Source of the DNA: an uncultured Rhodospirillales bacterium
GTDB lineage: Bacteria > Pseudomonadota > Alphaproteobacteria > Azospirillales > Azospirillaceae
Direction of reading: 5' to 3'
Assembly: GCA_903931735.1 (NCBI GenBank)
Contig: CAIZDL010000192.1
Location: 18,608-82,607 of the forward strand
Length of the DNA stretch: 64,000 nucleotides
Of the stretch, positions 1,184-21,249 are shown in pieces; the first letter of the stretch is position 1; every line of letters starts with the position of its first letter. The position numbers were made by a program, and so were the translations under genes. The notes beneath the pieces are model-generated. The model saw only the letters and a program-made list of their open reading frames with translations. It was not told the DNA's origin and did not search any database.

Positions 1184-1578
1184 CGGAAAGCCTCCAACGT
1201 CGGTTGCGCACCCGGCCTCGTCACTCTTCATGGACGATCATCGTGGCCTACAGTCGTCAAAGATAGCCTGAGCGTCACAAACTTTACAACAAGCATTTCC
1301 CACTAAACTATACAAAATCATCCTGCCCCGACAATTATCGCACCGCACAATACTCCATAAGCTCACTGAGCAACGAGCTATTTCTTCTCACTACAGCGGG
1401 ATTTACCTGCAAAATCATTACGAGTTTCTTAATAAAGACGTTTCAAATGCCCGCTTTTTTTCCACCACAAGGGAGGACGAATGCCGACACGCTTTGACGT
1501 ACAATTGTTCAATTGCCTTAGGGGACGCGCATCCGTATCATGGCTCAGGAGTCCCGTAACATTGAGGGGGGTATCAAC

Positions 1579-2433
1579 GTGTTGCTTGGCAAAAATCACT
1601 ATAACCGAACCGGCATCGCGCGGTCGGGCTTGGCTGCCATGGTCAGCGTTTCGCTTGTTCTTAGCAGCCTTACCGGATGCGTGACCACACGCGACGATCG
1701 GATCGGAGCCGACGACGGGTCCGACGCCTGCCTGGCCTATGTGGTCGCTCTCGACTCAACCGGCAACTATTTCGCCGAAGATATGATTAAGGGCGCAGCC
1801 ATTGGCGCGCTCGGCGGCGCGTTGATCGGCGGCATTGCGAGCGGCAACTGGCAAGGCGCGGCCATTGGCGCCGTCAGCGGTGCCGCAGTGGGCGCTCTCG
1901 GCGGCTACTGGAAGAGCAAAATGGATCAAGGCAAAGACCAAGCGGTCACCAGCCTGGCTTCCGACATGAACGCCGATGAAGCGCAACTGGACAAGAGCCA
2001 GGCCGCCTTCAAGCAACTCACCGCCTGCCGCCGCGATCAGGCTAAAAAGATCCGGGCGCAGTACACCGCAAAGTCGATCACCCGCGACGAAGCCCAAACC
2101 CGCCTGCGGATGCTGGGAACCCAGGCCCGTAAAGACGTTGATATCCTCAACGCCATTACTGGCAATGCCGATAAGCGCTTGGCCGAATACCAGTACGCCG
2201 CCAATCAAATCGACCCCAACGTTCCGGCACCGTCCGCATCGAACGAGAATTCGAGCAGTTCAAGCAGCTCGAGTGCCGACCGCAAGCCAAACCGTCCCCA
2301 CAAGCCGACACGGACGGGGCCGCCGACCACCCAGGGCTTTGCATCACTTCAGTCAAAAGCATCGACCCTCAAGCAGAACAGCTCCGACTACGCAGCAGAG
2401 TCGAGCGGTTGGGAAAGTGCCAAGCTGGGTTAA
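1579..2433 (+). CDS. Lipoprotein with a glycine-zipper segment, a coiled-coil region and a Ser-rich tail
   Basis: Lipobox LSSLTGC. Gly-zipper GAAIGALGGALIGGIASGNWQGAAIGAVSGAAVGALGG. The in-frame GTG at 1579 is preceded by GAGGGGGG; the track ORF starts at 1540. There is a poly-Ser run (SSSSSSSS) near the C-terminus. Confidence 0.75.
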   Translation: MLLGKNHYNRTGIARSGLAAMVSVSLVLSSLTGCVTTRDDRIGADDGSDACLAYVVALDSTGNYFAEDMIKGAAIGALGGALIGGIASGNWQGAAIGAVSGAAVGALGGYWKSKMDQGKDQAVTSLASDMNADEAQLDKSQAAFKQLTACRRDQAKKIRAQYTAKSITRDEAQTRLRMLGTQARKDVDILNAITGNADKRLAEYQYAANQIDPNVPAPSASNENSSSSSSSSADRKPNRPHKPTRTGPPTTQGFASLQSKASTLKQNSSDYAAESSGWESAKLG

Positions 2434-2647: not shown

Positions 2648-5600
2648 ATGTCTGTATTCCGGTTGGGCCGAGTGGGTTTGGCGCTGATTTTATCCCTGAC
2701 ACTCGCCATGGGGCGCTCCGCTCCGGCCGAGGCCGCCGATGGCGCCGCCTGGGTGGAACCACCGTCTGAGCCGTTCTTGCGCATCGAAACCGGGATGCAC
2801 ACCGCGATCATCAATCGAATTTCCGTGGACGCCACTGGGCGATTGGCGGCAACCGCCTCCGACGATAAAACCGTGCGCCTATGGTCTTTGCCGGAAGGGC
2901 GGCCGGTTGGAACGCTACGGGTGCCAATTGGCAATGGCCCCGAGGGCAGCCTTTACAGCGTCGCGCTGTCTCCCGATGGCGCCACCGTGGCTGCGGGCGG
3001 GTTCGTGGGCCAGCAATGGGACGGCCGCCCGTCCCTTTACCTTTTCGATGTCGCAAGCCGGAAGATCAAGGCACGGCTGCCAAAATTACCCAGCGAAATC
3101 CTCCATTTGGCCTTTTCTCCCGATGGCCGGCGGCTGGCGGCGGCCTTTGGCGGCGGCGCCGGATTGATCGTTTACGACATGGGCACCGGTAAAATCCTGG
3201 GGGAGGACCATAACTATAGCAACCAACCGTCAAATTGGGTCGCTTTCGCACAGGATGGACGCCTCGCCACCACCGGCTTTGACGGCAACGTGCGCCTTTA
3301 CGACGCCTCGGTGAAGTTGATCGCCAAGCGCACCCTGCCCGGCGCCAACCGGCCGTTTTCGGTCGCATTTTCACCCGACAATGCGACCTTGGCGGTGGGA
3401 TCGTTCGACACCCCGAAGGTTGATATCCTGTCGGCGGCCGACCTCAAATCCCGCTCCTCACCCGATACCAGCGACCTTAAAGGCGGCAATCTTGCGGCGG
3501 TGGCGTGGATCGAGGATGGACGCCAAGTCTTGCTGGCCGCAGGCGGCACCGCCAGCCGCGACGACGGCTCGCGCATCATCCGGGTTTGGTCGGGGGCCGG
3601 CACCGGGCGCTCGGTCGACATCTCCGCCGCAAAAGACTCGATCAACCAAATCGCGCCGCTCAGCGGGGGCGAGGCGCTGTTTGTGAGCGCCGCCCCGTCA
3701 TGGGGACGGATCGGCGCCGGCCGAAAACTGCTGGAGATAACCAGCCCCACCGCCAACTTCCGCGATATTTCCGCCGGTCGGTTCGCGGTTTCCGAAGATG
3801 GTCTCACCCTCGAATTTGGCATTGCGGCCAAGGGCCAGCGCCCGATGCGGTTGGACCTGCGCGACCATAGCTATGGCCCGGCTCCAAAAGCCGACCCAAC
3901 ACTTGCCAAAGCCATGACCGAGGCATCTGCCTTTAAAATAACAAATTGGCAGCATTCCAACGCGCCAATGATCGGAAACCGCAAGCTTCGGCTGGATGGC
4001 GAAGAAAGAACGCATAGTTTAGCGATCACTCCCGATGGTCAATCCTTTTTGCTGGGCGGTGACTATTGGCTCCGCTGGTTCAACAATACTGGTGCGTTGA
4101 TTGAAAAAGTGGCCATTCCCGCTGCTGCGACCGGCATCACCGTCACCCGATCAGGGACCACGGCGCTGGTCGCGCTCACCGATGGCACCCTTCATTGGTA
4201 TAACCTGGCCGGCGGCAGCAAACCTTTGGAGGAGCGCGCCTCCTTATTCGTTCATGGCGACGGCCAACGCTGGGTTGCCTGGACTCCGGAAGGATTCTTT
4301 GACCATGCTGAAAACGGCGGCAAGGATATGGTCGGATATCACTTCAACAAAGGACGAACCACCACGCCGGAGTTCATCAACTTCGCCCAGGTTTACCAAT
4401 TACTTCATAGCTCAGACTTGGTAATGAAGAAAATTACTGGCGGTTTTGACCCGGAAATTGCCCGAACCTATACCAATATCGGAAATCTGCGCGCCCGCTT
4501 TGAGCGCCATCCGCTGCCAAAGATTGAAAATCTTGAATATTGTTGGACCCAGGCGGGAGGGCAGGAAATGTGCCGTCCGATCAACGAAATTGGCACCCGC
4601 GGCTTTGTGCGCGACACCAGCCGACCAACCGCGCCCGGCAGCACGGTTTCAACCACCCCCTCCCCGGTCGCGGCTGCACTATCGGCGACAGTTCCTGCTG
4701 ATATTTCGCAAGTGAAGTTAAAGTTCAAAATTGTCGACGGCGGCGGCGGAGTGGGCGATATCGGCGTTTTTGTCAATGACCACAACATTGATCGCCAGGA
4801 TATCACCCGCGCATTTCGCCGCGATACTGGGTCCGCTGCTGCCATAACCTCGCCTGGCCCCCAGGGATTCAACCGACTTGTTTCGCTTGACCCGGGCAGT
4901 AACCGCATAGAACTTCGAATTTACGATGGCGCACGCACCGCCTTTGCCAGTTCCGGGCGGATAGAGCTGGTCCGCTCATCACCGCCGACCGAAGGCGGAC
5001 CGCAGCTAGCCCCCGCGAGCAAGCCCCGCCTGTTCGTTTTGGCGGCCGGCGTCGATGTCTACAAAAACCCGGCCTACCACCTGAATTTCCCCGTCGCCGA
5101 TGCCGAAGGGGTAACTGCGGCATTAAAAGACCGGGTGGGTGATCTATATGAAAAAGTATTTGTGCCAACCATTACGCCCAGTCGTGCTGTTGTGTTCGCC
5201 GAGGCAAAAACCGGCACCGCCGTTCTGGCCAACGAAAACGCGAGCCTTGAAATGATCGAAAAGGCATTCAAGGCCTTAACTACCGGTGATATCGTACGTC
5301 CCGCCGATACTGTCGTTATTTATTTGGCCGGACACGGCGTTCGTGAAGACGGTGGCGCCGGAAGCTCTCAGGCTGCTGGCAAATTCTACTTCATCACATC
5401 AAACGTCGACAGCCCCGATACCGTAGCCGGTCAAGCTCTTGGGCAAGATGTTCTGCTTCAACACCTCGTTGAGATTAACGGCAAAAAAGCGCACATTTTA
5501 CTTGTGCTGGATACGTGCCATTCGGGCGCTTTTGCCAAAGGCACCCCAATCGATGCCATCACCAACCTGAACGATGAAGCCGGGATCTCGGTGCTCGCCG

Positions 5601-5875
5601 CCGCCGCTTCAAACCAAGAAGCGCTCGATGGCTACCGACCCCAAGGACGCGGACGGGCCGAGCACGGCGTTTTTGCCTACGCGGTCATCTCGGGCATTGG
5701 CGGCGCTGCTACGGCCGATGAAACCGGGATCATTTACCCCACCTCATTGGCGCGCTATGTTAAAGAGGCCGTGATCAAGCTGGCAGCCGAGGTCAGCCCA
5801 AATCACAAGCAGCAAGCCAAATGGCAACCCCTTGGCGAACAAGACGACTTTCCTTTGGCACGGAAGTTTCGGTAG
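2648..5875 (+). CDS. Exported WD40-repeat / caspase-fold (peptidase C14) protein, 1075 aa
   Basis: ATG at 2648 after GGGAGGG. Signal peptide MSVFRLGRVGLALILSLTLAMGRSAPAEA. WD40-type repeats (DDKTVRLWSL, SPDGATVAAGG, SPDGRRLAAA, DGNVRLYD, SPDNATLAVGS). C-terminal C14 domain with YLAGHG (His codon 5333..5335) and LVLDTCHSG (Cys codon 5516..5518). Confidence 0.85.
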   Translation: MSVFRLGRVGLALILSLTLAMGRSAPAEAADGAAWVEPPSEPFLRIETGMHTAIINRISVDATGRLAATASDDKTVRLWSLPEGRPVGTLRVPIGNGPEGSLYSVALSPDGATVAAGGFVGQQWDGRPSLYLFDVASRKIKARLPKLPSEILHLAFSPDGRRLAAAFGGGAGLIVYDMGTGKILGEDHNYSNQPSNWVAFAQDGRLATTGFDGNVRLYDASVKLIAKRTLPGANRPFSVAFSPDNATLAVGSFDTPKVDILSAADLKSRSSPDTSDLKGGNLAAVAWIEDGRQVLLAAGGTASRDDGSRIIRVWSGAGTGRSVDISAAKDSINQIAPLSGGEALFVSAAPSWGRIGAGRKLLEITSPTANFRDISAGRFAVSEDGLTLEFGIAAKGQRPMRLDLRDHSYGPAPKADPTLAKAMTEASAFKITNWQHSNAPMIGNRKLRLDGEERTHSLAITPDGQSFLLGGDYWLRWFNNTGALIEKVAIPAAATGITVTRSGTTALVALTDGTLHWYNLAGGSKPLEERASLFVHGDGQRWVAWTPEGFFDHAENGGKDMVGYHFNKGRTTTPEFINFAQVYQLLHSSDLVMKKITGGFDPEIARTYTNIGNLRARFERHPLPKIENLEYCWTQAGGQEMCRPINEIGTRGFVRDTSRPTAPGSTVSTTPSPVAAALSATVPADISQVKLKFKIVDGGGGVGDIGVFVNDHNIDRQDITRAFRRDTGSAAAITSPGPQGFNRLVSLDPGSNRIELRIYDGARTAFASSGRIELVRSSPPTEGGPQLAPASKPRLFVLAAGVDVYKNPAYHLNFPVADAEGVTAALKDRVGDLYEKVFVPTITPSRAVVFAEAKTGTAVLANENASLEMIEKAFKALTTGDIVRPADTVVIYLAGHGVREDGGAGSSQAAGKFYFITSNVDSPDTVAGQALGQDVLLQHLVEINGKKAHILLVLDTCHSGAFAKGTPIDAITNLNDEAGISVLAAAASNQEALDGYRPQGRGRAEHGVFAYAVISGIGGAATADETGIIYPTSLARYVKEAVIKLAAEVSPNHKQQAKWQPLGEQDDFPLARKFR

Positions 5876-5896
5876 GTCTCTGCAACGATACAACCG

Positions 5897-7747
5897 ATGG
5901 AGTCAATAATGCGCTGGATGGTTGCCGGACTAACCGCTTTAACTTTTGTGGCTGGAGCCCCAGCCCCAAACGCTTTCGCCGCTGTTAACACCTTTGGCTT
6001 GGTTATCGGCGTCGACGACTACCAGTATATTAGCCCGAAGCTTGAAGGCTCGGTCAACGACGCCACCGATGTGGCAAACGCGCTTCAAAAAGACGGCGCC
6101 CAAGATGTCAGACTATTGCTTGATCAAAAGGCGAGTCGAGATGCGATCATGGGCGCCTGGAATGACCTGATGGCAAAAGTGCAGAAAGGCGACAACCTAA
6201 TCTTTCATTTTGCCGGCCATGGCGGACAGGAACCGGAACATGTCAAAGGCTCCGAGGAGTCAGGCTATGACTCAACTTTACTTCTCGCGGGATTTTCGCT
6301 AAAGGGTCCCGGCACCTACGAACGCATCGTGGACGATGAATTGGGAGCGATGTTCCAACGCGCCTCCGACGCGGGCGTCAACCTGCTGGTGGCAATCGAT
6401 GCCTGCCATTCCGGCACCATGACCCGCGCCTTCAACAACCCATCGATCGCAAAGCCCCGTGTTCGGGCGGTGACCTATCTGCCGATTGCCGCAAGTGAGG
6501 ATCGATTGCCGTTGATAGACCCGGCTTGGTCAAAAATTCCCAAAGAACTGCCCCATGTGTTTTACTTCGGGGCGGTCCATGACCACGAAGAGGCCCCCGA
6601 GATTGCAATTGGCGGCCAACAACGGGGCGCCCTTAGCTGGTCGCTGGCATCGGGTTTACGGGGCGCCGCCGATGCCAACAAAGACGGGGTGATTACGGTC
6701 AGCGAATTGCGCGACTATATCATCGACCAAATCCAGATCAAAGTTGAAGGGCAACAGCATCCATCGATCATTCCCACCAAGTCCCGTGGGGTTACGTTTG
6801 TCGACAGAGGCGAGTTTTCGATTTTAAGCCCCCAAGCACTCGAGATTGTTAAGGTCGCGTCAAAGGATGGGCTCACCGACTATGCCAAACAATTACTGGC
6901 ACAAGCGGTTAAGGAGGGTCCGGGAGATTCCGGAACTGACAAACTTCAAGCTATTATGAAGGCTATTCAAGAAAAAGCCAAGAGCAATGCCCAACAGATC
7001 CCGTCAACCGCAATCCAGATGGCAATTATCAATACCTCACTCGGAGCCATGCCCGAACTGAGGGCACCCCTGACCAATGTTCAAATCGTCGAACCTGCAA
7101 GCAGGCCGCTCCTGACATGGGATGTGGGGAAACGAAGGGTTCTGTCTTCGCTCGGCGATATCGTCGCCGATTTTTCCAGCAGCGCCAGCACAACGGCCGA
7201 TGACACACGGGCCTTTAAGCGTCAGGTCAATACCAGCGAGTCCAAGCAAACGATTGGCGCTGCAACCGATGTGCCGATGGCTCAGGCGGTTATCGACAAA
7301 TGGCACCTTACGGAATTGATTAAGACGCTCGCCGAGAAGCAAAGCCTCGGCATTTCGCTCCAACCCGGTGACGCTATTCATACCCTCGGGGAGAAAGTAA
7401 TGTTTTCCGTCGAGGGCCAGAACCAACCCTACTTAACGTTATTTAACCTTGCTTCCGATGGCACCGTAAACTTTATTTACCCACTCGCTACCGCCGAGGT
7501 TAAGGACCCGCTCAACATCCCCCTCGGGCGGCCCTATGATGTGCCTCTTGTGGTTGCCCCCCCCTATGGGGCCGATCACCTTGTGGCGATCGCCAGTGCC
7601 GAACCGCTTGTCGAGCTCCATAAAACCCTAACGGAGATTGACAACAAGCCAACAGCGCGCGCCCTCGAAACCGCTCTACGCACACAACTCAACGGCCGTA
7701 CCTACCAAATCGGCATTCACGGCTCCTACACGGCCAAGCAGCGCTAG
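5897..7747 (+). CDS. Exported caspase-fold (peptidase C14) protein with a C-terminal DUF4384-like domain, 616 aa
   Basis: Signal peptide MRWMVAGLTALTFVAGAPAPNAFA. FGLVIGVDDY...FHFAGHGG (His 6218..6220) and VAIDACHSG (Cys 6404..6406). The C-terminal GDAIHTLGEKVMFSVEGQNQPYLTLFNLASDGTVNFIYP matches my recall of DUF4384. It starts 22 nt after the preceding gene. Confidence 0.85.
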   Translation: MESIMRWMVAGLTALTFVAGAPAPNAFAAVNTFGLVIGVDDYQYISPKLEGSVNDATDVANALQKDGAQDVRLLLDQKASRDAIMGAWNDLMAKVQKGDNLIFHFAGHGGQEPEHVKGSEESGYDSTLLLAGFSLKGPGTYERIVDDELGAMFQRASDAGVNLLVAIDACHSGTMTRAFNNPSIAKPRVRAVTYLPIAASEDRLPLIDPAWSKIPKELPHVFYFGAVHDHEEAPEIAIGGQQRGALSWSLASGLRGAADANKDGVITVSELRDYIIDQIQIKVEGQQHPSIIPTKSRGVTFVDRGEFSILSPQALEIVKVASKDGLTDYAKQLLAQAVKEGPGDSGTDKLQAIMKAIQEKAKSNAQQIPSTAIQMAIINTSLGAMPELRAPLTNVQIVEPASRPLLTWDVGKRRVLSSLGDIVADFSSSASTTADDTRAFKRQVNTSESKQTIGAATDVPMAQAVIDKWHLTELIKTLAEKQSLGISLQPGDAIHTLGEKVMFSVEGQNQPYLTLFNLASDGTVNFIYPLATAEVKDPLNIPLGRPYDVPLVVAPPYGADHLVAIASAEPLVELHKTLTEIDNKPTARALETALRTQLNGRTYQIGIHGSYTAKQR

Positions 7748-7774
7748 GCCCCAAGCAACGCAATCACACCCAAC

Positions 7775-7800
7775 GTCAGCCAGCGCCTTCGCTGGCTGAC
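7775..7800. terminator. Hairpin between convergent genes (possible bidirectional terminator)
   Basis: GTCAGCCAGC (7775..7784) pairs with GCTGGCTGAC (7791..7800): a 10-bp perfect stem with a 6-nt loop. It lies between the stops at 7747 (+) and 7831 (-). Confidence 0.5.
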
Positions 7801-7830
7801 ACCCCGATAAACCCCGAGCCCCGAACGCTG

Positions 7831-8160
7831 CTACTTACAAACGTTCACGATATTCCGCGCGGTTACCACCGTTTCCCGGCCGCTATTGACACCGCCGACG
7901 TTCATCGTACAATCCCCCTTCCGGGCGTTCCCCATATGAACGAGCGTGTCGGAGGTCGGGTCGTAAGAGTTCCCCCCACCGGTGTCGTTACTGTTCATGC
8001 CGCCCGTGGTCCCATATTGCCTCGCCTTGACAGCGTTGACGGCGGTATTTCCTGAGTTGGTCAGATGTGTGGGGTTATTGATGTCCCCTGCGTAAGCCAC
8101 CCCACCGCTAAGCATGAACGCCGCGATGAGAGCCATCAGGGGTCGGGTGCAGCTATACAT
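7831..8160 (-). CDS. Small secreted Asn/Gly/Thr-rich protein (109 aa), member of the local paralog family
   Basis: GGAGGA lies 5 nt before the ATG at 8160. Signal peptide ...MLSGGVAYA. Mature part NSGNTAVNAV...GDCTMNVGGVNSGRETVVTARNIVNVCK has a Cys pair near the C-terminus. Confidence 0.75.
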   Translation of the reverse strand: MYSCTRPLMALIAAFMLSGGVAYAGDINNPTHLTNSGNTAVNAVKARQYGTTGGMNSNDTGGGNSYDPTSDTLVHMGNARKGDCTMNVGGVNSGRETVVTARNIVNVCK

Positions 8161-8370
8161 TACAGTCCTCCATCAGAGTTTGACGAGATGATTAGAGCAC
8201 ATCTCCAAGATAATAGGCGATGCCGCCCGAAAAGAAACATCCGGGAACGATGCCCCGCTCTAACAACAAAACATATGCCTATTTCTCGAGCCGCGATAAG
8301 CAAGCTGTCGCTGGTGAGCCTGCCCAACCCATGGTATCCTGTCGCCTATCGAACTGAACAGGAGGGTGAT

Positions 8371-8676
8371 ATGAAACCCGCGACCTGCATTTGCGCCATA
8401 GTGGCCCTTGCCATCCCGTTGCTCCCGTTGGGCCACGCCCAGGGCCAAACGGCGAGCCAAAATATTACCATCAACTCCATTGGTGAGGACAACAGCACCT
8501 CGTTCCAGAGTGGAATCGCCAACGACAGCCAAGTCGTCGGCATCACCATAATCAATAATGAGATATGGATCGACGGCGAAAAAGTCCCGCGCGGTGCCAC
8601 CAAATTTACCGGCCGCTCGGGGAAAAACTACCGTATCGAACGAGTCGGCGGCGCCATCCAAGTTCGGGACGAGTAA
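8371..8676 (+). CDS. Small secreted protein (101 aa)
   Basis: The ATG at 8371 is preceded by GGAGGG (8361..8366). Signal peptide MKPATCICAIVALAIPLLPLGHA. Mature N-terminus QNITINSIGEDNSTSFQSGIAND resembles the NTTINA motif of the neighbouring small proteins. Confidence 0.7.
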   Translation: MKPATCICAIVALAIPLLPLGHAQGQTASQNITINSIGEDNSTSFQSGIANDSQVVGITIINNEIWIDGEKVPRGATKFTGRSGKNYRIERVGGAIQVRDE

Positions 8677-8695
8677 TCGCCCCCCATACCAACCA

Positions 8696-8724
8696 CCGCC
8701 CGCGCGGCTCGACCACGCGGGCGG
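8696..8724. terminator. Hairpin between convergent genes
   Basis: CCGCCCGCG (8696..8704) pairs with CGCGGGCGG (8716..8724): a 9-bp GC stem with an 11-nt loop. It lies between the stops at 8676 (+) and 8790 (-). Confidence 0.4.
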
Positions 8725-8789
8725 CATTGTCGATTGCCCGCTGGCGCAAACACCACAACCATGGCGCGACCACCTGGAAACAGCCATGG

Positions 8790-9377
8790 CTAGCGGCACC
8801 CCCCTCCCCCAACGGCGATGGTATTAACACCCTGAGCGTTGCTGGTGGGGTCGCCAGACCGGTCGACAACCACCACATTGCCCACCGTTCCCAGTGACAC
8901 CGTGGCACTCGTGCACGGACGACGGCCGCCATCGCCGTCCGACCAAGACCGCGCCCGATCCATGGCAGTGTCCAACGGACGCTGACTATCCAACCCGCCC
9001 GGCGGCGTCCCGGGCAAAATCACCAACGTATTATTCCCGCTTCGATTGCCATCTTTGCCTTGGGATTGCGCCTTCGCACGCAGACGGTTGCGAATCATCG
9101 CCTCCCGGTTTTTTTCCGCTGCCGCCTCGGCGGCCGAGCCCTCCGGCGCAATAATTATAATGTTGGGAACCGTCCCACGATTCGGGTCCCCATACATCCG
9201 CGCCCGGGCCTCGTTATCGATTCCCGCCTCCCGATTTACCTGCCCCGGACTGGGTGAGGCCGAAGCCTCACCCGACCCCAGAGGGACAACGATCAACTCG
9301 CCAGCAAAGGCAACGCCACAAACAAACGTCAGCAACCCCGCCAGTTGGACAAATGCCATTTCAATTTTGATCGCCAT
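8790..9377 (-). CDS. Secreted protein (195 aa); its C-terminus is related to the small repeat-protein family
   Basis: The ATG at 9377 is preceded by GGGAGG at 5 nt. Signal MAIKIEMAFVQLAGLLTFVCGVAFA. The C-terminal CTSATVSLGTVGNVVVVDRSGDPTSNAQGVNTIAVGGGGCR shares the GVNTIAVG motif and the terminal Cys pair. The mature N-terminus ELIVVP resembles EIIVAP of ORF 13147..13494. Confidence 0.7.
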   Translation of the reverse strand: MAIKIEMAFVQLAGLLTFVCGVAFAGELIVVPLGSGEASASPSPGQVNREAGIDNEARARMYGDPNRGTVPNIIIIAPEGSAAEAAAEKNREAMIRNRLRAKAQSQGKDGNRSGNNTLVILPGTPPGGLDSQRPLDTAMDRARSWSDGDGGRRPCTSATVSLGTVGNVVVVDRSGDPTSNAQGVNTIAVGGGGCR

Positions 9378-9394
9378 CCAAGCCTCCCGTGAGT

Positions 9395-9422
9395 AATCGG
9401 GGCGGACCATTCCGCCCCGATT
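9395..9422 (-). promoter_or_regulatory. Strong intercistronic stem-loop between the CsgG-like gene and the downstream gene
   Basis: AATCGGGGCGGA (9395..9406) pairs with TCCGCCCCGATT (9411..9422): a 12-bp perfect stem with a 4-nt loop. There is no U tract, and the SD of the next gene follows immediately. Confidence 0.5.
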
Positions 9423-9427
9423 TCACA

Positions 9428-10915
9428 TTACTGCACGGTTATGTCGAGCCGCGACGTGGAAACATTGGGATTGGCCGCCCGGAAGATCCCATCAATCTCT
9501 TCGAGTGAGCCAACCGCCAACCTTGTCAGATCTTTTTCTTTCAACTTGGCCGGCAAGGGGACCTCCGACTCGCTCGCCAAGCACGAGACAACCTCGTGAC
9601 CGGCCTTATCAAAGCGGATTTTTACCGGCTGCTGCGGCGCCGACAAAGGCACCATCCGGCTACTCACATAGGCGTTCGGCTGGAAGCGGTTGGGGAACAA
9701 GCGCGCAATCGTGCCGTCCGCATCCTGATAGTAGCAGTAGAGGAACGAATTGCGCCCCAGATCGACCCTGGCGCTGAGGATGGAATTCGGCTCATACGTC
9801 GGGTTCGCGCCACGATCCGAAAGCACCGTAACCGGCACCAGCGTCTTGGTAACAGTCACCGGCGGCGGACGGCGGGTGTCGTCGGCAACCGGAGCTTCAT
9901 CGTCCAACAAGGCGAAATACAGCTCGAAATTAGTCTGGCCGTTCGCGATTAAGCCATTGCTGGCCTGATAGCGGCCAATCGCCTCGCGGGTCGCCGAATC
10001 AAGCTCGCCGTTCGCAGAACCCTGATAAATATTCGTGGCCGACAGCTTGCGCTGAACAAAGCTTACTTTGTCCTTCAGGCCCATCGCGTCGTACCATTCG
10101 CGCGCCTGCTCCCGCAGTTTTGGGTTGCTCTTCTCGATCTGCAAGCATTTCCAATACGGCGTATGGGAGAACTGGCCGACCATTTCGATCGCACCCAGTT
10201 CAATAAGTGCGCGCACCGCGGCACCAAGCCCTTCCGACGTATTAAACGAAATATTGATGCTAAGGCCCATCTTACCAATCTTGCCGCCCGCCTCACCTGA
10301 GCGACCAAGCCGGACCACCGCCATAGTATTACTGGAACCAGCATCGGAAATGATTTGGCGCGATACGGTCTCGCCAATATTCATATCCAACCCAACCAGC
10401 GAAACAATCTGGTCTTTCGAGATACCGAGATCGGCGAAGGGGGTTGATATCGCCCCGCCGAGTTGGCTTTCCAAGGCATTGTCATCCAACTGGGTGATGG
10501 CACCACGAATATAATATGATGGCACCTTATAACCAGCACCCGACGCCCGCTGCGCATCGATGAAGAAGCTGGCATTCAGTGGGTCATAATCAATATAGGA
10601 AAACGCTTTTGACTTCCGGGACATCAGGTTGAGCGCCCTGATCAGCATTTCTTTAGTGCCGACCGAAACTTTTTGGGTCGAATCTGTAATGCCGGCAGTC
10701 GTGATTGTGATATCATGCTTGCCGTAAGTCATCATCAAATTGTCCATGCACTGCAAGGCCGGCGTAAAGCTGGTGAAGGTCTTGCTGGCTGGTGTCTTCG
10801 GCGCGGCTGCAAGCGTCGCCGTATCCGGGTCTGGCGTCACGCAACCGACCACCATGCCCGCTGCAATCAGACATGCGGCAAGCTGGCGAGCCCTCTTCTT
10901 AAATGTTGGGTTCAT
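9428..10915 (-). CDS. Lipoprotein fusing a CsgG-like domain, a peptidoglycan-binding (PG_binding_1-like) domain and a DUF4384-like domain, 495 aa
   Basis: ATG at 10915 with GGAGGA upstream. Lipobox AAGMVVGC. YYIRGAITQLDDNALESQLGGA, SKDQIVSLVGLDMNIGETVSRQII and NTSEGLGAAVRALIELGAIEMVGQ align by eye with E. coli CsgG (IMVEGSIIGYESNVKSGGVGA, QLDQIAVNLRVVNVSTGEIL, SNEPVMLCLMSAIETGVIFLI). VQRKLSATNIYQGSANGELDSATREAIGRYQASNGLIANGQ looks like PG_binding_1. SARVDLGRNSFLYCYYQDADGTIARLFPNRF looks like DUF4384. Confidence 0.8.
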   Translation of the reverse strand: MNPTFKKRARQLAACLIAAGMVVGCVTPDPDTATLAAAPKTPASKTFTSFTPALQCMDNLMMTYGKHDITITTAGITDSTQKVSVGTKEMLIRALNLMSRKSKAFSYIDYDPLNASFFIDAQRASGAGYKVPSYYIRGAITQLDDNALESQLGGAISTPFADLGISKDQIVSLVGLDMNIGETVSRQIISDAGSSNTMAVVRLGRSGEAGGKIGKMGLSINISFNTSEGLGAAVRALIELGAIEMVGQFSHTPYWKCLQIEKSNPKLREQAREWYDAMGLKDKVSFVQRKLSATNIYQGSANGELDSATREAIGRYQASNGLIANGQTNFELYFALLDDEAPVADDTRRPPPVTVTKTLVPVTVLSDRGANPTYEPNSILSARVDLGRNSFLYCYYQDADGTIARLFPNRFQPNAYVSSRMVPLSAPQQPVKIRFDKAGHEVVSCLASESEVPLPAKLKEKDLTRLAVGSLEEIDGIFRAANPNVSTSRLDITVQ

Positions 10916-10960
10916 GGATACCAAGGTCCTCCGTTGTTGGTCGCGCTCCAATCCTGACCG

Positions 10961-11923
10961 TCAGGGCGAACGCGAACGCTCCTTTTGAAAAAATCGGCTC
11001 GGCGGCGCCCCCGCCCAGAACCGGCTCACTAAACCCTCGACTTCCCCCACCGTCAAACCAACCATAGCAGGGCTAAAAACGTCATGGGAAGGTGTATGGA
11101 TCAGATACGCCTGTGTCTCGTTAATCATCAGGTCGCCATTTTCGGGATCATACCCCTTACCGGCGAGAAACTTCCGAAACGCGGCCCGCTCACTCTCGGT
11201 TAGTCCCCTCGCCCAAAAATCCCGGCAATATTCCGAGTAGGCTGGGTTGGTATAATACTCGCCATGAGAAATCTCATGGTGAAGAATAGCCTTGCGAAGT
11301 TGGGGTGTAATAGCAGCCTGACCCGATTTCTTGCGAACAGCAACCGATCCGCCCCCACTCTGTGGAATTGAAATAATAACTCGCTCAGGTGGGACCGGGG
11401 TGTAGAACTCAAACTTGCGCTCCATCACCCCTTTAGCAATGAGAAAATCACGAAGGCCAATCTCATCGTTATTTAAATCGATTTTCTCGTCACTGGCGAT
11501 TGTATAAAACTTGGCTAAGTCAACACTGCGAAAATCATTACCGTATGCGTAAGTTGCGAAACCTTTGCCCGATGCCGTCATCAGGCCTTCCAACTGTGTG
11601 TCGGTCAACACATGTTCGCGTTCCCCGCCCTGACGCTCGATAAGGGCGAGGATGCGGCTAAACATCCGCCCTTGCTGCTCAAGCTCCGGAAAATCAAGGA
11701 TAAAGACCGCCGGATTACCGGCAACGACGTGAATGGCCAACTGCCGACTGTGAAACGACTCAAGCGCCGCCACACTGGCCGCCATCCGCACCTCGGCATC
11801 AAACGCCCAGGCTCCCCGACACTCAAAAACGCCAACCAGAAAAGCCGTGGCCGCGACACCAACCGCCGCGGCGAGCCCCGCGCCACCACAACCAGCGAAT
11901 ACGCGGGGACCTCGCCTCGACAT
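10961..11923 (-). CDS. Membrane-anchored hypothetical protein with an HExxH motif (possible metallohydrolase), ~320 aa
   Basis: The track ORF 10961..11950 starts at a GTG; an ATG at 11923 has GAGG upstream. N-terminal hydrophobic anchor AGLAAAVGVAATAFLVGVF. Motif ILHHEISHGEYY (H-E-I-S-H). I recognise no family. Confidence 0.6.
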   Translation of the reverse strand: MSRRGPRVFAGCGGAGLAAAVGVAATAFLVGVFECRGAWAFDAEVRMAASVAALESFHSRQLAIHVVAGNPAVFILDFPELEQQGRMFSRILALIERQGGEREHVLTDTQLEGLMTASGKGFATYAYGNDFRSVDLAKFYTIASDEKIDLNNDEIGLRDFLIAKGVMERKFEFYTPVPPERVIISIPQSGGGSVAVRKKSGQAAITPQLRKAILHHEISHGEYYTNPAYSEYCRDFWARGLTESERAAFRKFLAGKGYDPENGDLMINETQAYLIHTPSHDVFSPAMVGLTVGEVEGLVSRFWAGAPPSRFFQKERSRSP

Positions 11924-11978
11924 GAGCCTCACCAAATTTTGCGACCACACCCAGGACGCACCAAACGAAACGCGCCGA

Positions 11979-12695
11979 TCAGCCTTTCAATTCGAACTGA
12001 ACACGACGATTGGAGGGATCGCGAGGGCTCGCGCCATTGAGCGGCTGGCTTGGCCCTTTCCCAACGGCGGTAAGACGCGACCCTTCAAGACCATATTTTT
12101 GCATCAAAACATCGCGGACAGCATTGGCCCGCGCCATCGAAAGCTCCATGTTCCGAGCATAGACACCGCTCGCATCGGTATGACCCTCGATTGTCAACGA
12201 GTATTGCTTCTCTTCCGTCAAGATCTTGGCGATACCATCCAGAAACGCCTCGGACCCCGGCCGCAAAGACGCCGACCCGACATCAAACTGAATCCGCATC
12301 GCGACCTGTTTGCCGCCACCCGATTCCTGACTGCTCGAAGACGCCGCTGGCCGTGCTGGCCGCGGCCGTGACGCCGACGAAGGCTGTTGACGACGGGGTT
12401 GCTGACGTGCGGCCGGCGGCGAATCAGAGTCATCGGAGGCGGATGAGGCTGACGGCGCCGCAGGAGCGGCAGGGGCCGCCGGAGCAGCAGGGCCATCAAT
12501 CTGAATGCTGCGAGTCCGCACGGCGGGCTTGTGAGTCATGCCCAACGCATCGCGCAGCTCATCGACGCTCGGCGGGGCATCGAATACCTTGACACTCTCA
12601 GCATGAGCGGAAAGTCCCAACAAGAACACAACCGAGGCAAAACCAATAGTCGCGTGGATAAGCCTGGATCGGCGGCCTGTTAGTCTGCTCATCAT
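11979..12695 (-). CDS. OmpA-family peptidoglycan-binding protein with a Pro/Ala/Ser-rich linker
   Basis: Signal ...FLLGLSAHA. Linker PAAPAAPAAPAAPSASSAS. OmpA_C motifs: IQFDVGSASLRPGS...LTIEGHTDASGVYARNMELSMARANAVRDVL...NRRVQFEL. Confidence 0.85.
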   Translation of the reverse strand: MMSRLTGRRSRLIHATIGFASVVFLLGLSAHAESVKVFDAPPSVDELRDALGMTHKPAVRTRSIQIDGPAAPAAPAAPAAPSASSASDDSDSPPAARQQPRRQQPSSASRPRPARPAASSSSQESGGGKQVAMRIQFDVGSASLRPGSEAFLDGIAKILTEEKQYSLTIEGHTDASGVYARNMELSMARANAVRDVLMQKYGLEGSRLTAVGKGPSQPLNGASPRDPSNRRVQFELKG

Positions 12696-12789
12696 GACGT
12701 TACCCCTTCATAAAGATTCGCCCCGCGGGGCACTGTTCATACCGGCAAAATCTTAAGTCTGCTCCAAACCTTAGGTCTGGGCCTAAACC

Positions 12790-13101
12790 TTAGTCGCACT
12801 TGCCCGACGACCCGATATTGATGCACCCCTTGCGACCGTGACCGGTCACAATGTTATCGACGTTCTTCACATCGACCGTCACCGAAGTCGGCCCCCTGGT
12901 GCTTTCATCGATCACACCAATCCGCGTGTTGGCGGTATTGCCAGTCCCGGCCGCGATCGTGTTGACATTCCGTGCGGTGGCATCAATGTGCGTCGTCCCC
13001 TTTATCTGGACGCCGCCCGACTGCTGGGCCAACGCGGAGGTCCCCGCAACCAGTGCCAAAGACACCACCATGCCCCCGAGAACCATAGTTGAGCGACGCA
13101 T
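12790..13101 (-). CDS. Small secreted repeat protein (103 aa), paralog family
   Basis: ATG at 13101 with GGAGAA upstream. Signal MRRSTMVLGGMVVSLALVAGTSALA. VQIKGTTHIDATARNVNTIAAGTGNTANTRIGVI is a repeat homologous to that of ORF 13619..13951. The C-terminus GRKGCINIGSSGKCD has a Cys pair. Confidence 0.75.
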   Translation of the reverse strand: MRRSTMVLGGMVVSLALVAGTSALAQQSGGVQIKGTTHIDATARNVNTIAAGTGNTANTRIGVIDESTRGPTSVTVDVKNVDNIVTGHGRKGCINIGSSGKCD

Positions 13102-13146
13102 AGTGTTCTCCATATTTGAGCAAAACATTAACCAATCAAAGCCAAA

Positions 13147-13494
13147 CTACCGCGAGAGCAAAATGATTGTTTGGTGATTGGGTGCACTGGTCCCCCGCCG
13201 AAGATCTTCCGCGTGCCACAATGACCGGCTGACATTACTCTGGCTGGAGCGCAACGCACCAGAGCTACCGCCACCTCCACCCGGCAACGGCGCCAGCAGC
13301 GGCGTCTGGGGGTAATAAAGGATGGTCGACGGCACCGCCAGCGCAGACGAATGGACCACCAGGGGGATACCAATCCCCTCACCCGGCGCCACAATGATCT
13401 CTGCGCGGGCAGGCAGGATCGCGACCCAACCCAACGCGACGAAACCGACCAATCGGGCCGCACCCGAAATCAGGAGACGACAAACGCGTTTCAT
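13147..13494 (-). CDS. Small secreted protein (115 aa)
   Basis: The ATG at 13494 is preceded by GGGAGG at 7 nt. Signal MKRVCRLLISGAARLVGFVALGWVAILPARA. The mature N-terminus is EIIVAPGEG, and there is a Gly run PGGGGGSSG. Confidence 0.65.
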   Translation of the reverse strand: MKRVCRLLISGAARLVGFVALGWVAILPARAEIIVAPGEGIGIPLVVHSSALAVPSTILYYPQTPLLAPLPGGGGGSSGALRSSQSNVSRSLWHAEDLRRGTSAPNHQTIILLSR

Positions 13495-13570
13495 GACCAC
13501 GCCTCCCACCCATTATAAATGAGCCCAACACGTGCCATTATCAAGCAAACTACTATCAAGTAAACGACCC

Positions 13571-13610
13571 GGAGCCGGGCAACCTCGCTAAAAGCGCGCT
13601 GCCCGGCTCC
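13571..13610 (-). terminator. Stem-loop immediately after the first small-protein gene (partial terminator or attenuator candidate)
   Basis: GGAGCCGGGCA (13571..13581) pairs with TGCCCGGCTCC (13600..13610): an 11-bp stem with an 18-nt loop. It lies 8 nt downstream of the stop at 13619 and before the next gene in the same orientation. Confidence 0.45.
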
Positions 13611-13618
13611 AGTGCTGC

Positions 13619-13951
13619 TTACTTACCAATCCCACCAACGGTGGTCTTGGCCTTGTTGTTCTGCCCAACTGCGGTGGTGTTCACATCAACCGCAGTGGCG
13701 TTGATCGTGGTGTTGCCCTGAATCTGGGTGCCGCCACCGATGGCGCCAACCGCAGTTTCCGCAGTGTTACCCTGCCCAATGGCGGTGGTGTTCAGATTCC
13801 GGCCACTGGCGTTAATCGTCGTGTTGCCCTGAATCTGTACCCCGTCCGGATTGGTGCTCGACTGCATCCGAACGCCGCCCGCTGACTGCGCAAAAGCGGC
13901 ACCAGCCAAGGCAACGACGGCAACAGCGGTGAGGACTGCAAGCTTACGCAT
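13619..13951 (-). CDS. Small secreted tandem-repeat protein (110 aa), candidate major subunit of the family
   Basis: GGAGG lies 7 nt before the ATG at 13951. Signal MRKLAVLTAVAVVALAGAAFA. Two ~36-aa repeats: VQIQGNTTINASGRNLNTTAIGQGNTAETAVGAIGGG and TQIQGNTTINATAVDVNTTAVGQNNKAKTTVGGIGK. Confidence 0.8.
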   Translation of the reverse strand: MRKLAVLTAVAVVALAGAAFAQSAGGVRMQSSTNPDGVQIQGNTTINASGRNLNTTAIGQGNTAETAVGAIGGGTQIQGNTTINATAVDVNTTAVGQNNKAKTTVGGIGK

Positions 13952-14135
13952 CGAAAAACCTCCATAATAGGTTTAGTTTCAAGTTTCGTATCGTCTTCAA
14001 CTCATCTTTGGCGCCCCACCCGGCACGCGGCCCGGCACCCACCGCGCCGCTCAGCCTGGATCACCGCCACATGCTCATTGTCTCACGTTTCCGCATTTGC
14101 ATCAATTTTTTTCATAGGCGCCCCTCAACCGCCGG

Positions 14136-14999
14136 TTAACCAAGGGGTGGATCGCCGGAATCGGCATCAAAAACCACCCGCTCAGCGCCAGAAAGTACAG
14201 TAAACCTTTTTCCCCGCGCCCGCCCGATCAAGGTTAAGTTTACTTGCCGCGCCAGTTGAACCCCCCATGCTGTAAAGCCTGAGCGTGATACAAGAATTGG
14301 CAACCCCATTCTTACCGTCTTTATCACCATTTCGCTGGTCAACCTGCCCGTGGTGTAAAATATTTTGTCATCTGGATCGATAGATCGACGCGCCATCGCC
14401 CCCGCAATCTTGTCAACGGCATTGTGACGCCCAACATCTTCCATAAACAACAGGGGTTGATCGCGACAGCAAAGAACGCAACCATGAATAGCGCCGGCGG
14501 CACTATAGAGACTGGGCGTAGCCGTAATTCGGCTCGAAATAGCGTAAAGCCAGCTCGCGTGGATGCGTGCGGACTCCGATAATTTGGCCTGCGCAAAATT
14601 TTCCAGCACATCGCCAAATGCTGTGCCCTGCGCACAGCCTGAAGTCAGCGTCTTGCGCTTCAGTTTGGCCTCAAAGTCTGTGCGCCGCCCGGTTCGGACC
14701 ACCACCGCCTCAACCTCGGCATCATAGTCGATGCCGGTAATGGCGTCGTTGGGGCCAATCATGTTTTGGTTGAGCAAGTACCCCAACGCCAACTCTTCAA
14801 CATAGTCGCCGATGGTCATCAGCGTGACGATTTCCTGACCATTGAGGAACAGCGTCAGCGGCCGTTCAACCACCACCGGCAGCTCGACCGCCTGCCCGGT
14901 TTGATCGATACCGGTCACACGCTCGGTCAACCTCGGGTCTTCTGGATCGGGCTGAATGACATAAGGGGTCACGGGTCCGGCTCCGCTGGCTATGAACAC
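14136..14999 (-). CDS. fdhD: Formate dehydrogenase accessory sulfurtransferase FdhD
   Basis: PLTLFLNGQEIVTLMTIGDYVEELALGYLLNQ, EDVGRHNAVDKIAG, and TGRLTSEMVIKTVRMGLPILVSRSGFT are typical of FdhD. The start is uncertain. I chose the in-frame GTG at 14999 (287 aa); the track ORF extends to 15233. Confidence 0.85.
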   Translation of the reverse strand: MFIASGAGPVTPYVIQPDPEDPRLTERVTGIDQTGQAVELPVVVERPLTLFLNGQEIVTLMTIGDYVEELALGYLLNQNMIGPNDAITGIDYDAEVEAVVVRTGRRTDFEAKLKRKTLTSGCAQGTAFGDVLENFAQAKLSESARIHASWLYAISSRITATPSLYSAAGAIHGCVLCCRDQPLLFMEDVGRHNAVDKIAGAMARRSIDPDDKIFYTTGRLTSEMVIKTVRMGLPILVSRSGFTAWGVQLARQVNLTLIGRARGKRFTVLSGAERVVFDADSGDPPLG

Positions 15000-15077
15000 C
15001 GATTGACTCGGCTCCTGTCCCCTCGCACACTTCAACCGGGGTTTCAACCATGGCGGCAAACGGTGAGAACAGGCAAC

Positions 15078-16181
15078 ATGAGAAACCCGCTTGACCCGCC
15101 CATAAACGAGCGATGCGGCCCCACCCAGAGGGTGGATACCAACCACGCCCGAAGGGCCGATACCAACCAAGCCCGCACTTGGATCGATGGCTGGCCGCAG
15201 CTTGCCCGCAGCGAAATCGTTGACCGCACCCACGCCCTTGGCCGGGTCCTAGCGGAAACGGTGGCCGCCCCCCATGATATCCCGCCGTTCGATCAAGCGC
15301 TCATCGCCGGCTATGCTGTCCGCGCCGCCGCCACGGTGGGCGCCGGGAGCTACACGCCCTTGACGCAACCGCTGGCGCACGCGGTCACGCGAGGCCAGCC
15401 AATGCCGGATGGCGCCGACGCCGTGCTGCCGTTTGAGGCGACCACCTCTGGCCCCACGGGGCAGATTGAAGCAACGGGCACCGTCGCCGAGGGCGATGGC
15501 ATGGAGCCCCGCGGTCAAAGTTTGCGCGCCCACACCCCCGCCCTGAGTTATGGCCGCCCCCTTAGTCCCGAGGCCCTGGGGCTGCTCGCGCAGTTTGGCC
15601 ATCAAACGGTGCGGGTCCTGTGCCACCCCTGGGTGCGACTGGAGGACAGCGCCAACACGCCACTGCTGGCCCCCCTGATCAAGCGGGATGGCGGCATCGC
15701 CGCACCGGCGGGCACCGAACCGGACTTAATCCTCATCCCCGGCGGCGCCTACGCCCAGACCGAATTTGCGCTGGAACTCGATGGCCTAGCGCTGCGCCCG
15801 GGGGGTGAAGCCGGGCTCGGCCGCTGCCAGAACGTGCCGGTGATCCGGCTCCCACAAGAGCCTCTGGCCTGCCTCACCGCCTATGAACTGCTCGCCGGAC
15901 GATTGCTCCGGCGCTTGGGCGGGCGGCCCTGCGCCCTGCCTCACCCCACATGCCAAGTCCCGCTGACCCGCAAGATCAGCTCGGCCATTGGCTGGGTCGA
16001 GGTGGTGCGGGTGGTGCTTGCGGGAAACGGGGCCGAGCCGCTAGGCTCCACGGAAGGCGGCGGGCTGGTAACGGCCTGCCGCGCCGATGGCTTTGTTATT
16101 ATCCCGCCAGGCCGGGAAGGGTTTGGCTCGGGCGAAATCGTGACCGTCCATCTGCTGCACGCGAGGGATGATGACTGGTGA
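15078..16181 (+). CDS. Degenerate MoeA-like protein (MoeA N- and C-terminal domains, eroded central MoCF-binding domain)
   Basis: ALGRVLAETVAAPHDIPPFDQALIAGYAV replaces the usual SAMDGYAV. It lacks the STGDE and GGxSxGxxD motifs but keeps a MoeA_C-like end (GFVIIPPGREGFGSGEIVTVHLL). The start is uncertain: the ATG at 15078 is the first that does not overlap fdhD. Confidence 0.65.
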   Translation: MRNPLDPPINERCGPTQRVDTNHARRADTNQARTWIDGWPQLARSEIVDRTHALGRVLAETVAAPHDIPPFDQALIAGYAVRAAATVGAGSYTPLTQPLAHAVTRGQPMPDGADAVLPFEATTSGPTGQIEATGTVAEGDGMEPRGQSLRAHTPALSYGRPLSPEALGLLAQFGHQTVRVLCHPWVRLEDSANTPLLAPLIKRDGGIAAPAGTEPDLILIPGGAYAQTEFALELDGLALRPGGEAGLGRCQNVPVIRLPQEPLACLTAYELLAGRLLRRLGGRPCALPHPTCQVPLTRKISSAIGWVEVVRVVLAGNGAEPLGSTEGGGLVTACRADGFVIIPPGREGFGSGEIVTVHLLHARDDDW

Positions 16182-19418: not shown

Positions 19419-19430
19419 ACGCCCCGGCCC

Positions 19431-21134: not shown

Positions 21135-21249
21135 TGCTGTTTTCTCCCCTTATGTCAGCCCGCTATCCGAGCACGCTCTGTCAGCTCAGGCGGGTCATTT
21201 TGGCTGGGAGTGTACGCCGGAGCCCTCTCTTCTCCCAGAGTTTCTTTGG

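Follow-up and report, generated by a model that had tools for sequence, protein, structure and literature searches.

A gene on the minus strand of a 64,000-nucleotide stretch of DNA from an uncultured Rhodospirillales bacterium (contig CAIZDL010000192.1, positions 18,608 to 82,607; hereafter the window) encodes a 495-residue lipoprotein, in which a CsgG/HfaB-like domain is followed by a PG_binding_1 domain and a DUF4384 domain (9428–10915, with the stop codon at 9428–9430). We found that this protein belongs to a large, uncharacterized and deeply diverged branch of the CsgG/HfaB superfamily and is not a canonical CsgG. What is most distinctive is that the family as a whole has lost the CsgG constriction, has kept the barrel hairpins and is constantly associated with exported caspases, a combination absent from the initial annotation of this stretch. 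We tentatively propose, with a probability of roughly 0.45, that the protein forms a CsgG/HfaB-type outer-membrane conduit stapled to the cell wall, for which small repeat proteins would serve as cargo within its clade.

The longest open reading frame at this position (9428–10951, minus strand) begins with TTG. Starting from the ATG at 10915 gives the 495-residue product; public gene calls use the same start, the N-termini of homologues align there, and a GGAGG motif lies 12 nucleotides 5' of it. The preceding gene ends with a stop codon at 10961–10963. The first 25 residues (10841–10915, minus strand), MNPTFKKRARQLAACLIAAGMVVG followed by Cys, read as a signal peptide with a basic n-region, a hydrophobic core and the lipobox VVGC (residues 22–25). 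Cys25, the predicted lipidated residue, is conserved in at least 90% of relatives, and the residue at position +2 is Val. The protein carries a predicted lipoprotein signal of the Sec/Lol type. Identical proteins with the same neighbors were found on several metagenome contigs, and the nearest homologue in species-representative genomes was 67% identical, from an alphaproteobacterial metagenome-assembled genome (MAG). An AlphaFold2 model of the monomer had a mean predicted local distance difference test (pLDDT) score of 74.7.

Residues 26–262 (10130–10840, minus strand), with invariant cysteines at positions 56 and 257, were assigned to the CsgG/HfaB superfamily using hhalign, Foldseek and the hidden Markov model (HMM) of HfaB. 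The Pfam CsgG family PF03783, the gathering threshold of which is 20.8 bits, was matched weakly by 15 of 38 close and 14 of 87 diverse relatives (best E-value 6.1e-6), and the Azospirillum brasilense homologue, which lies at ~706.2–707.8 kb of NZ_QOKV01000001.1, scored 17.4 bits, under the threshold. A phmmer search of the single protein sequence against the PDB returned noise and nothing relevant, and an HMM of 38 family sequences did not reach CsgG among the PDB sequences, where it found PG_binding_1 proteins only (E ≥ 0.1). The NCBIfam HfaB model (NF037935) matched residues 133–249 with 27.1 bits (E = 2.2e-6), which falls short of its equivalog cut-off of 300 bits, and it weakly matched 63 of the 87 diverse relatives (best E = 1.3e-10). 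Judged by HMM, the N-terminal domain is closer to HfaB than to CsgG.

Profile–profile comparison connected the family to CsgG itself. With the alignment of 87 members against Escherichia coli CsgG, a sequence that we verified to be identical to PDB entry 3x2r, hhalign gave a probability of 95.5% (E = 1.5e-8) over 220 columns. The alignment was collinear from the lipobox to the C-terminal helix and spanned CsgG residues 5–253 of 277. After removal of the signal peptides the probability was 84.6% (E = 6.8e-6), and it gained slightly, to 89.0%, against a 60-sequence CsgG alignment, the members of which were, among the matches listed, all enterobacterial proteins at least 83% identical. Eight shuffled CsgG sequences yielded 0.1–0.5% and reversed CsgG 1.2%. 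The diverse 87-sequence alignment was needed to see the relationship, the shallow alignment of 38 sequences giving 38.7%. The identity between the domain and CsgG is ~16–17%. Paired in the alignment are YYIRGAITQLD...GG with CsgG IMVEGSIIGYE...GG, DQIVSLVGLDMNIGETVSRQI with DQIAVNLRVVNVSTGEILSSV, and AVRALIELGAIEMV with LMSAIETGVIFLI, which are the same blocks that the initial annotation had matched by eye.

Comparison of the structure model with the PDB gave the same picture. The nine top-ranked Foldseek matches were all CsgG chains (4uv2; E = 1.3e-6 to 8.9e-6, probability 1.00), followed by FlgT (3w1e, E = 1.1e-5; LPHT ring 8z5n), PelC, HpaA and GNA1162, which all have the CsgG fold and were all significant. 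The root-mean-square deviations were high and the TM-scores modest (0.38–0.52 normalized to the CsgG chains), the latter as one would expect of a query that has several domains and floppy hairpins. In length, the domain (~235 residues) resembles the CsgG chains (216–257) and not PelC (156–158) or GNA1162 (144), all as listed in the Foldseek table; it is not of the compact, hairpin-less PelC/GNA1162 type of ~145–160 residues and has both insertions. By predicted fold and profile–profile comparison, the N-terminal domain is thus a remote member of the CsgG/HfaB superfamily.

Goyal et al. are said to have shown in 2014 that two hairpins of CsgG (precursor residues 149–169 and 199–223) build its 36-stranded barrel. 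The equivalents of the first and second transmembrane hairpins (TM1 and TM2) in the lipoprotein are residues 147–171 (10403–10477) and 201–226 (10238–10315), both on the minus strand, and hhalign aligned them without deletion, with 25 and 26 residues versus 21 and 25 in CsgG. Among the 87 relatives the hairpin regions were never shorter than these, except in one member with one residue less in TM1, and some relatives carried insertions there. The TM2 equivalent alternates hydrophobic and polar residues at 207–213 and 216–224, and it contains the strongest beta-amphipathic signal of the domain (residues 218–222; 2.14 versus a mean of 0.58 with a standard deviation of 0.47), comparable to that of the CsgG hairpins. 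The AlphaFold2 model has long strands at 188–202 and 209–224, low pLDDT at 149–164, and low confidence exactly at both hairpin tips. With both hairpin segments kept, a pore is plausible.

The constriction of CsgG, by contrast, has no counterpart. A short loop of eight residues, STQKVSVG (residues 79–86; 10657–10680, minus strand), takes the place of the ~20-residue CsgG constriction loop according to the alignments and the modeled secondary structure, leaving a 12-residue alignment gap over CsgG F63–A74, which holds Tyr51, Asn55 and Phe56 (mature numbering). The short loop has no aromatic residue. Its length was the same in 76 of the 87 relatives and never more than three residues greater, and only 9 of the 87 had any aromatic residue in it. 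By alignment, the CsgG constriction loop is deleted family-wide. In CsgG, the barrel lumen measures 4 nm and the constriction 0.9 nm (PMC4594475). The two invariant cysteines, Cys56 in helix 1 and Cys257 in the segment that follows the C-terminal helix, likely form a periplasmic disulfide.

Both C-terminal domains exceeded their Pfam cut-offs. The PG_binding_1 domain (residues 276–340; 9896–10090, minus strand) was matched by PF01471 at residues 282–331 (E = 3.2e-7, 30.9 bits versus a cut-off of 23); the family profile weakly matched solved PG_binding_1 domains, and the model shows a helical bundle at residues 265–338. An acidic, Pro-rich linker follows (residues 341–360; 9836–9895, minus strand), modeled as disordered with pLDDT <50 at 349–357. 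The DUF4384 domain (residues 361–495; 9431–9835, minus strand) was matched by PF14326 at residues 374–450 (E = 3.2e-9, 37.2 bits versus a cut-off of 27), and is modeled as a confident beta-sandwich (pLDDT 85–95). Below the CsgG-fold matches, the Foldseek list continues with generic immunoglobulin (Ig)-like chains. All 38 close relatives have both domains, and Cys394 and Cys445 of DUF4384 are invariant among them. DUF4384 is an uncharacterized family that is often fused to proteases (bioRxiv 10.1101/2022.08.17.504292). The three-domain architecture read in the initial annotation was upheld, with the N-terminal part assigned by profile and fold, as was its observation that the DUF4384 module is common to the lipoprotein and the neighboring caspase encoded at 5909–7747, the DUF4384 copy of which scored 31.8 bits in Pfam (E = 1.5e-7). 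BLASTP detected no similarity between the two copies, which argues for a common family and not a recent exchange. We rejected a recent exchange of DUF4384 between the caspase and the lipoprotein on the same ground.

The family is large. A full-length search found 419 relatives among the scored candidates, and the best 120 of these covered at least 95% of the query at 48–100% identity. At 50% identity, 866 clusters were hit at E ≤ 1e-3 in an exhaustive search with the HMM of the N-domain, and 316 of them also passed E ≤ 1e-30. Among the 149 best cluster representatives, 101 contained the N-domain, PG_binding_1 and DUF4384; the remaining 48, some of which are fragments, were without DUF4384 (28), without PG_binding_1 (6) or had the N-domain only (14). 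The gene occurs, among other species-representative genomes, in those of many Azospirillum species, Skermanella, Rhodocyclus purpureus, Propionivibrio dicarboxylicus, Sulfuricystis, Terasakiella, Magnetospirillum and Dokdonella. A contig labeled "Candidatus Micrarchaeota archaeon" (locus L013) also bears a homologue with 53% identity and is most likely mis-binned. The three-domain fusion is ancient and widespread in Proteobacteria, common rather than a one-off.

RefSeq names the family members "DUF4384 domain-containing protein", and JGI automatic labels on some members combine CsgG with a peptidoglycan-binding domain. The literature we searched contained no description of the CsgG-like, PG_binding_1 and DUF4384 architecture and no functional study of the family, and in the searchable literature DUF4384 was never mentioned in the context of a CsgG-like lipoprotein architecture. 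The initial annotation had supposed the domain combination to be undescribed. This holds in that neither a functional annotation nor a published description was found; it does not hold if undescribed is taken to mean rare, since the combination occurs in hundreds of 50%-identity clusters, among them ones from cultured Azospirillum, Rhodocyclus and Propionivibrio.

We counted neighbors at 43 genomic loci with full 10-kb flanks. An OmpA-like protein was the most constant neighbor of the family, found within 10 kb at 39 of the 43 loci. A caspase was present at 36, a CHASE2 adenylate/guanylate cyclase at 31, small repeat proteins at 13–15 (usually in two to four copies), the 109-residue protein family of the window at 11 and its 320-residue family at eight. 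Sulfuricystis, a Rhodocyclales MAG, Terasakiella and others have the gene families of the window around their homologue. A minimal locus in one alphaproteobacterial MAG consists of OmpA, a 110-residue exported protein and the lipoprotein homologue. The Azospirillum loci have the order two DUF4399 genes, the lipoprotein, OmpA, a hypothetical protein, a DUF4384 protein, a CHASE2 cyclase and a caspase-Ig-FGE-sulfatase protein, with an extracytoplasmic function (ECF) sigma/anti-sigma pair upstream and a Crp/Fnr regulator nearby. The constant partners in loci of this type are OmpA, the DUF4384 protein, the CHASE2 cyclase and the caspase-FGE protein. Examples are locus L059 (9917–19384) and locus L087 on the Azospirillum ramasamyi plasmid NZ_CP029832.1; the caspase protein in these loci has the composition caspase-Big_9-FGE-sulfatase.

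In the window, a same-strand run with short gaps encodes exported proteins of 110, 115 and 103 residues, the OmpA-like protein, a 320-residue protein, the three-domain lipoprotein and a 195-residue protein. Beyond the run are exported proteins of 101 and 109 residues and two divergently oriented exported orthocaspases. Every product of this gene cluster has a signal peptide. The OmpA-like peptidoglycan-binding protein (11979–12695, minus strand) was identified by Pfam OmpA (E = 5.7e-21). The two orthocaspases are on the plus strand: one (5909–7747) is a Peptidase_C14 protein with an intact His/Cys dyad and a C-terminal DUF4384 domain, and the other (2648–5875) combines a WD40 beta-propeller with the orthocaspase domain, both as found by Pfam. 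Their catalytic motifs are AGHG / DACHSG in the protein at 2648–5875 and AGHG / DTCHSG in that at 5909–7747. From their signal peptides and intact catalytic motifs, we predict that both orthocaspases are active enzymes of the envelope, to which they would be exported.

Two small proteins of the run are candidate cargo. The 110-residue exported protein (13619–13951, minus strand) consists of two tandem Gly/Asn/Thr-rich repeats of 37 residues with a hexad hydrophobic period; AlphaFold2 modeled it as all-beta with pLDDT >90, and it had no match in Pfam or NCBIfam. The 103-residue protein (12790–13101, minus strand) is its paralogue and is likewise built of two such repeats. The 109-residue exported protein (7831–8160, minus strand), of a family with a GDIN...C...CK pattern, forms a minimal conserved trio with OmpA and the lipoprotein. 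The 195-residue exported protein directly downstream of the lipoprotein gene (8790–9377, minus strand) has weak homologues in the same position in Rhodocyclales loci.

The 320-residue exported protein (10961–11923, minus strand), encoded just upstream of the lipoprotein and conserved beside it in its clade, is a putative metallopeptidase with HExxHxE and NExQAY motifs. The residues H216-E-x-x-H220-x-E222 and N268-E-x-Q-A-Y are invariant across nine homologues, and to judge by these motifs they constitute a gluzincin-like zinc-peptidase signature. The protein had no match in Pfam, NCBIfam or the PDB sequences and may for that reason represent an undescribed metallopeptidase family. A C-terminal loop of the form Cys...Cys-[K/R/D] ends several otherwise dissimilar exported proteins, those at 7831–8160, 8790–9377 and 12790–13101 as well as one at a related locus (L006, 9558–9890), examples being ...GDCTMNVGG...NVCK, ...PCTSATVSLG...GGGCR and ...GCINIGSSGKCD. 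The proteins may have this loop in common for purposes of sorting or recognition.

PADLOC assigned the lipoprotein, the 320-residue protein and the small proteins to no defence-system model; the caspases matched a generic caspase model and the OmpA-like protein ZorB/MotB-type models. A scan of 7.5–14.3 kb for promoters and terminators found sites no more numerous than in shuffled sequence. A glycine-zipper lipoprotein (1540–2433, plus strand) has a weak likeness to TagQ, a lipoprotein associated with the type VI secretion system (NCBIfam E = 1.2e-18, below the cut-off); it lies near family members at 2 of 80 loci elsewhere and is not conserved. Beside the cluster, the region ~14136–21134 encodes FdhD, three consecutive MoeA-like molybdopterin proteins (one fused to a PBP-like domain) and a NADH-dehydrogenase 51K-type subunit. 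The G+C content of the envelope cluster (4000–14000) is 0.54–0.59 versus 0.62–0.67 in the molybdenum-cofactor region (14000–22000), and the lower value could reflect horizontal acquisition.

The wall-stapled conduit that we propose would work as follows. The lipoprotein would oligomerize into a ring, like CsgG and HfaB, and the lipid anchors and hairpins of the ring would insert into the outer membrane to form the conduit. From below, its PG_binding_1 domains and the OmpA-like protein encoded nearby would both staple the ring to the cell wall. The DUF4384 domains, on their flexible tethers, may serve for docking or capping in the periplasm, with the exported caspases that bear the same module as possible partners. 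The likeliest cargo in the clade would be the small beta-repeat proteins, rich in Gly, Asn and Thr and exported by Sec, whose genes surround that of the lipoprotein, by analogy with CsgA/B for CsgG and HfaA/D for HfaB. A lumen that has no constriction would be wide, unless it is plugged by a partner or by the C-terminal domains.

Several results weigh against the proposed conduit and its cargo. Pore formation is inferred from sequence. No match to PF03783 appeared when the protein was searched against Pfam with hmmscan at E ≤ 1 and E ≤ 10, so that the CsgG relationship asserted in the initial annotation is not recovered by a direct HMM search of the protein, and is recovered by profile–profile comparison and Foldseek. 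The TM1 equivalent alternates only at residues 154–166, and its mean beta-moment is weak, at background level. The authors of the cited CsgG work state that a stacked phi-clamp and a hydrogen-bond ring are required in CsgG-like translocators (PMC4594475), and the constriction loop that would provide for this requirement is absent here; an unplugged barrel of ~4 nm would be a leak. As for the cargo, an hhalign comparison of the repeat-protein family with CsgA aligned the signal peptide alone. The top Foldseek rows of the repeat protein were beta-solenoids (the CsgA fibril and FapC, at E = 0.66–1.2, and ice-binding proteins), none of them significant. We therefore rejected the small repeat proteins as curlin homologues by sequence, and a kinship by fold is unsupported. 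The small repeat proteins are also missing from the Azospirillum-type loci, and repeat cargo is therefore not a family-wide explanation.

Two readings could be set aside. It is effectively excluded that the CsgG resemblance arose by chance or composition, with an unrelated lipoprotein domain at the N-terminus. Such a view could draw on the failure of phmmer and of the family HMM to reach CsgG in the PDB, on the low identity and on the modest TM-scores with high deviations. Four independent lines nevertheless agree, namely the shuffle-controlled profile–profile comparison, the Foldseek ranking, the HfaB HMM matches in 63 of 87 relatives and the weak PF03783 matches, and collinearity extends over the whole alignment, lipobox and C-terminal helix included. 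Least probable of all is that the protein is a bona fide curli CsgG of a canonical type VIII system with extra domains. Its overall fold and alignment match CsgG, and the automatic JGI annotation of some relatives says as much, but this reading is already contradicted: matches to PF03783 fall short of the threshold or are missing, the constriction loop has been lost, the repeat proteins show no homology to CsgA, and the neighbors scanned had no Pfam or NCBIfam matches to CsgE, CsgF or Curlin_rpt. The CsgG-like channel domain of the initial annotation accordingly stands as regards the superfamily fold, and its pore is plausible in view of the two hairpin segments; it does not stand as CsgG proper, given the failed PF03783 match, the nearer HfaB, the missing constriction loop and the lack of csgE, csgF and curlin genes.

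Two other explanations deserve more weight, though we consider each of them unlikely. The protein may instead form an outer-membrane-anchored ring or scaffold without a pore, like PelC or FlgT, which together with the OmpA-like partner would mainly tether the outer membrane to peptidoglycan and position exported caspases or DUF4384 partners under the outer membrane. FlgT and PelC use the CsgG-like fold in periplasmic, outer-membrane-associated rings, and in FlgT, too, additional beta domains follow an N-domain of CsgG-like type. FlgT, PelC, HpaA and GNA1162 were also significant Foldseek matches, the constriction loop is absent family-wide, the amphipathicity of the TM1 equivalent is weak, and two peptidoglycan-binding modules, one in the protein and one in its constant OmpA neighbor, point to tethering. 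What speaks for the conduit over such a scaffold is that the best fold and profile matches are to CsgG itself over its full length, that both hairpins are kept at CsgG-like length with a strict lower bound, whereas PelC and GNA1162 are without them as judged by chain size, and that the amphipathic beta signal of the domain peaks in the TM2 equivalent. Somewhat less probable again is an inward signaling gateway, in which the conduit would admit or present an extracellular, possibly proteinaceous signal, the caspases would process it, and the CHASE2 cyclase would sense it and act through a cyclic nucleotide monophosphate (cNMP) on the Crp/Fnr regulator. The frequency of CHASE2-cyclase and caspase genes within 10 kb (31 and 36 of 43 loci) fits this idea, as does the Azospirillum locus layout with its CHASE2 cyclase, caspase-FGE protein, Crp/Fnr regulator and ECF sigma/anti-sigma pair, and there is a precedent in NsrA, the CHASE2 cyclases and Clr of Sinorhizobium meliloti (PMC13001267). 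However, the 64-kb window contains no CHASE2 cyclase, NsrA is an unrelated beta-barrel, the cited literature describes CsgG and HfaB as export channels only, and co-location within 10 kb is no proof of a common pathway.

A bolder version of the conduit is, in our view, improbable. Here a constriction-less, wall-stapled CsgG-type channel would be capped in cis by PG_binding_1 and DUF4384 in place of CsgE and would export small, possibly folded beta-solenoid subunits that build an unrecognized surface fiber or matrix, under the control or processing of exported orthocaspases that share DUF4384 and would in many genomes link the system to CHASE2 cNMP signaling. If true, such a cis-capped channel would add a new branch to type VIII-like secretion, one whose regulation by periplasmic caspases is built in.

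The CsgG scaffold has a large unstudied branch of ~870 clusters at 50% identity, which includes the genetically tractable Azospirillum. In this family the constriction by which CsgG transport is defined has been lost, and a cell-wall anchor and an Ig-like module have been added; the family could be used to test whether a CsgG barrel works without a phi-clamp. CsgG is a pore used in nanopore sequencing, and a wide-bore CsgG-type pore is a possible offshoot. The role of the lipoprotein would also give a handle on bacterial exported caspases and DUF4384. If the protein is only a tether, the gain would be smaller, namely one more outer-membrane-to-peptidoglycan staple.

Compared with known systems, the protein is nearest in structure to E. 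coli CsgG (PDB 4uv2, 4uv3, 3x2r), the curli secretion channel and a nonameric pore. The two have in common the lipobox Cys, the fold over a domain of ~235 residues, a collinear alignment that includes a DxTG motif and the C-terminal amphipathic helix, undeleted hairpin segments, and a gene placed among those of small exported repeat proteins. They differ in that the identity is ~17%, the Pfam threshold is failed and the 12-residue constriction core is deleted in the lipoprotein, which, unlike CsgG, has the invariant Cys56/Cys257 pair, PG_binding_1 and DUF4384 and is without CsgE, CsgF and curlin partners. The closest named HMM is that of Caulobacter HfaB (NF037935), the holdfast-anchor translocon and a proteobacterial CsgG-like outer-membrane protein. 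CsgG and HfaB are translocons for small amyloid-like subunits, those of curli and probably those of holdfast anchors (PMC6707917, PMC4594475), and HfaB is thought to export the small amyloid-like surface proteins HfaA and HfaD (PMC6707917). The lipoprotein scores ~27 bits against the 300-bit HfaB cut-off, and an NCBIfam scan of its neighbors found no matches to HfaA or HfaD. The HfaB HMM is 264 residues long and, as far as length shows, has no PG_binding_1 or DUF4384 extension.

FlgT of the Vibrio flagellar H-ring (3w1e) and PelC (5t0z), both significant Foldseek matches to the model, differ from the lipoprotein in being without the two long hairpins (PelC has ~157 residues) and without a peptidoglycan-binding domain, and their gene contexts, the flagellum and Pel polysaccharide, are different. 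In S. meliloti, a plant protein is perceived by CHASE2 cyclases with the help of the outer-membrane protein NsrA, and the cyclases act through the CRP-family regulator Clr (PMC13001267). This system of NsrA, CyaD1/CyaD2/CyaK and Clr resembles many family loci in combining an outer-membrane protein with a CHASE2 cyclase and a CRP-family regulator, and differs in the unrelated beta-barrel of NsrA and from the window in having CHASE2 cyclases at all. Pal and other OmpA_C lipoproteins share with the protein described here the plan of an outer-membrane lipoprotein with a peptidoglycan-binding domain. The likeness is one of logic only, as our protein has the PG_binding_1 fold instead of OmpA_C and a CsgG-type domain in between.

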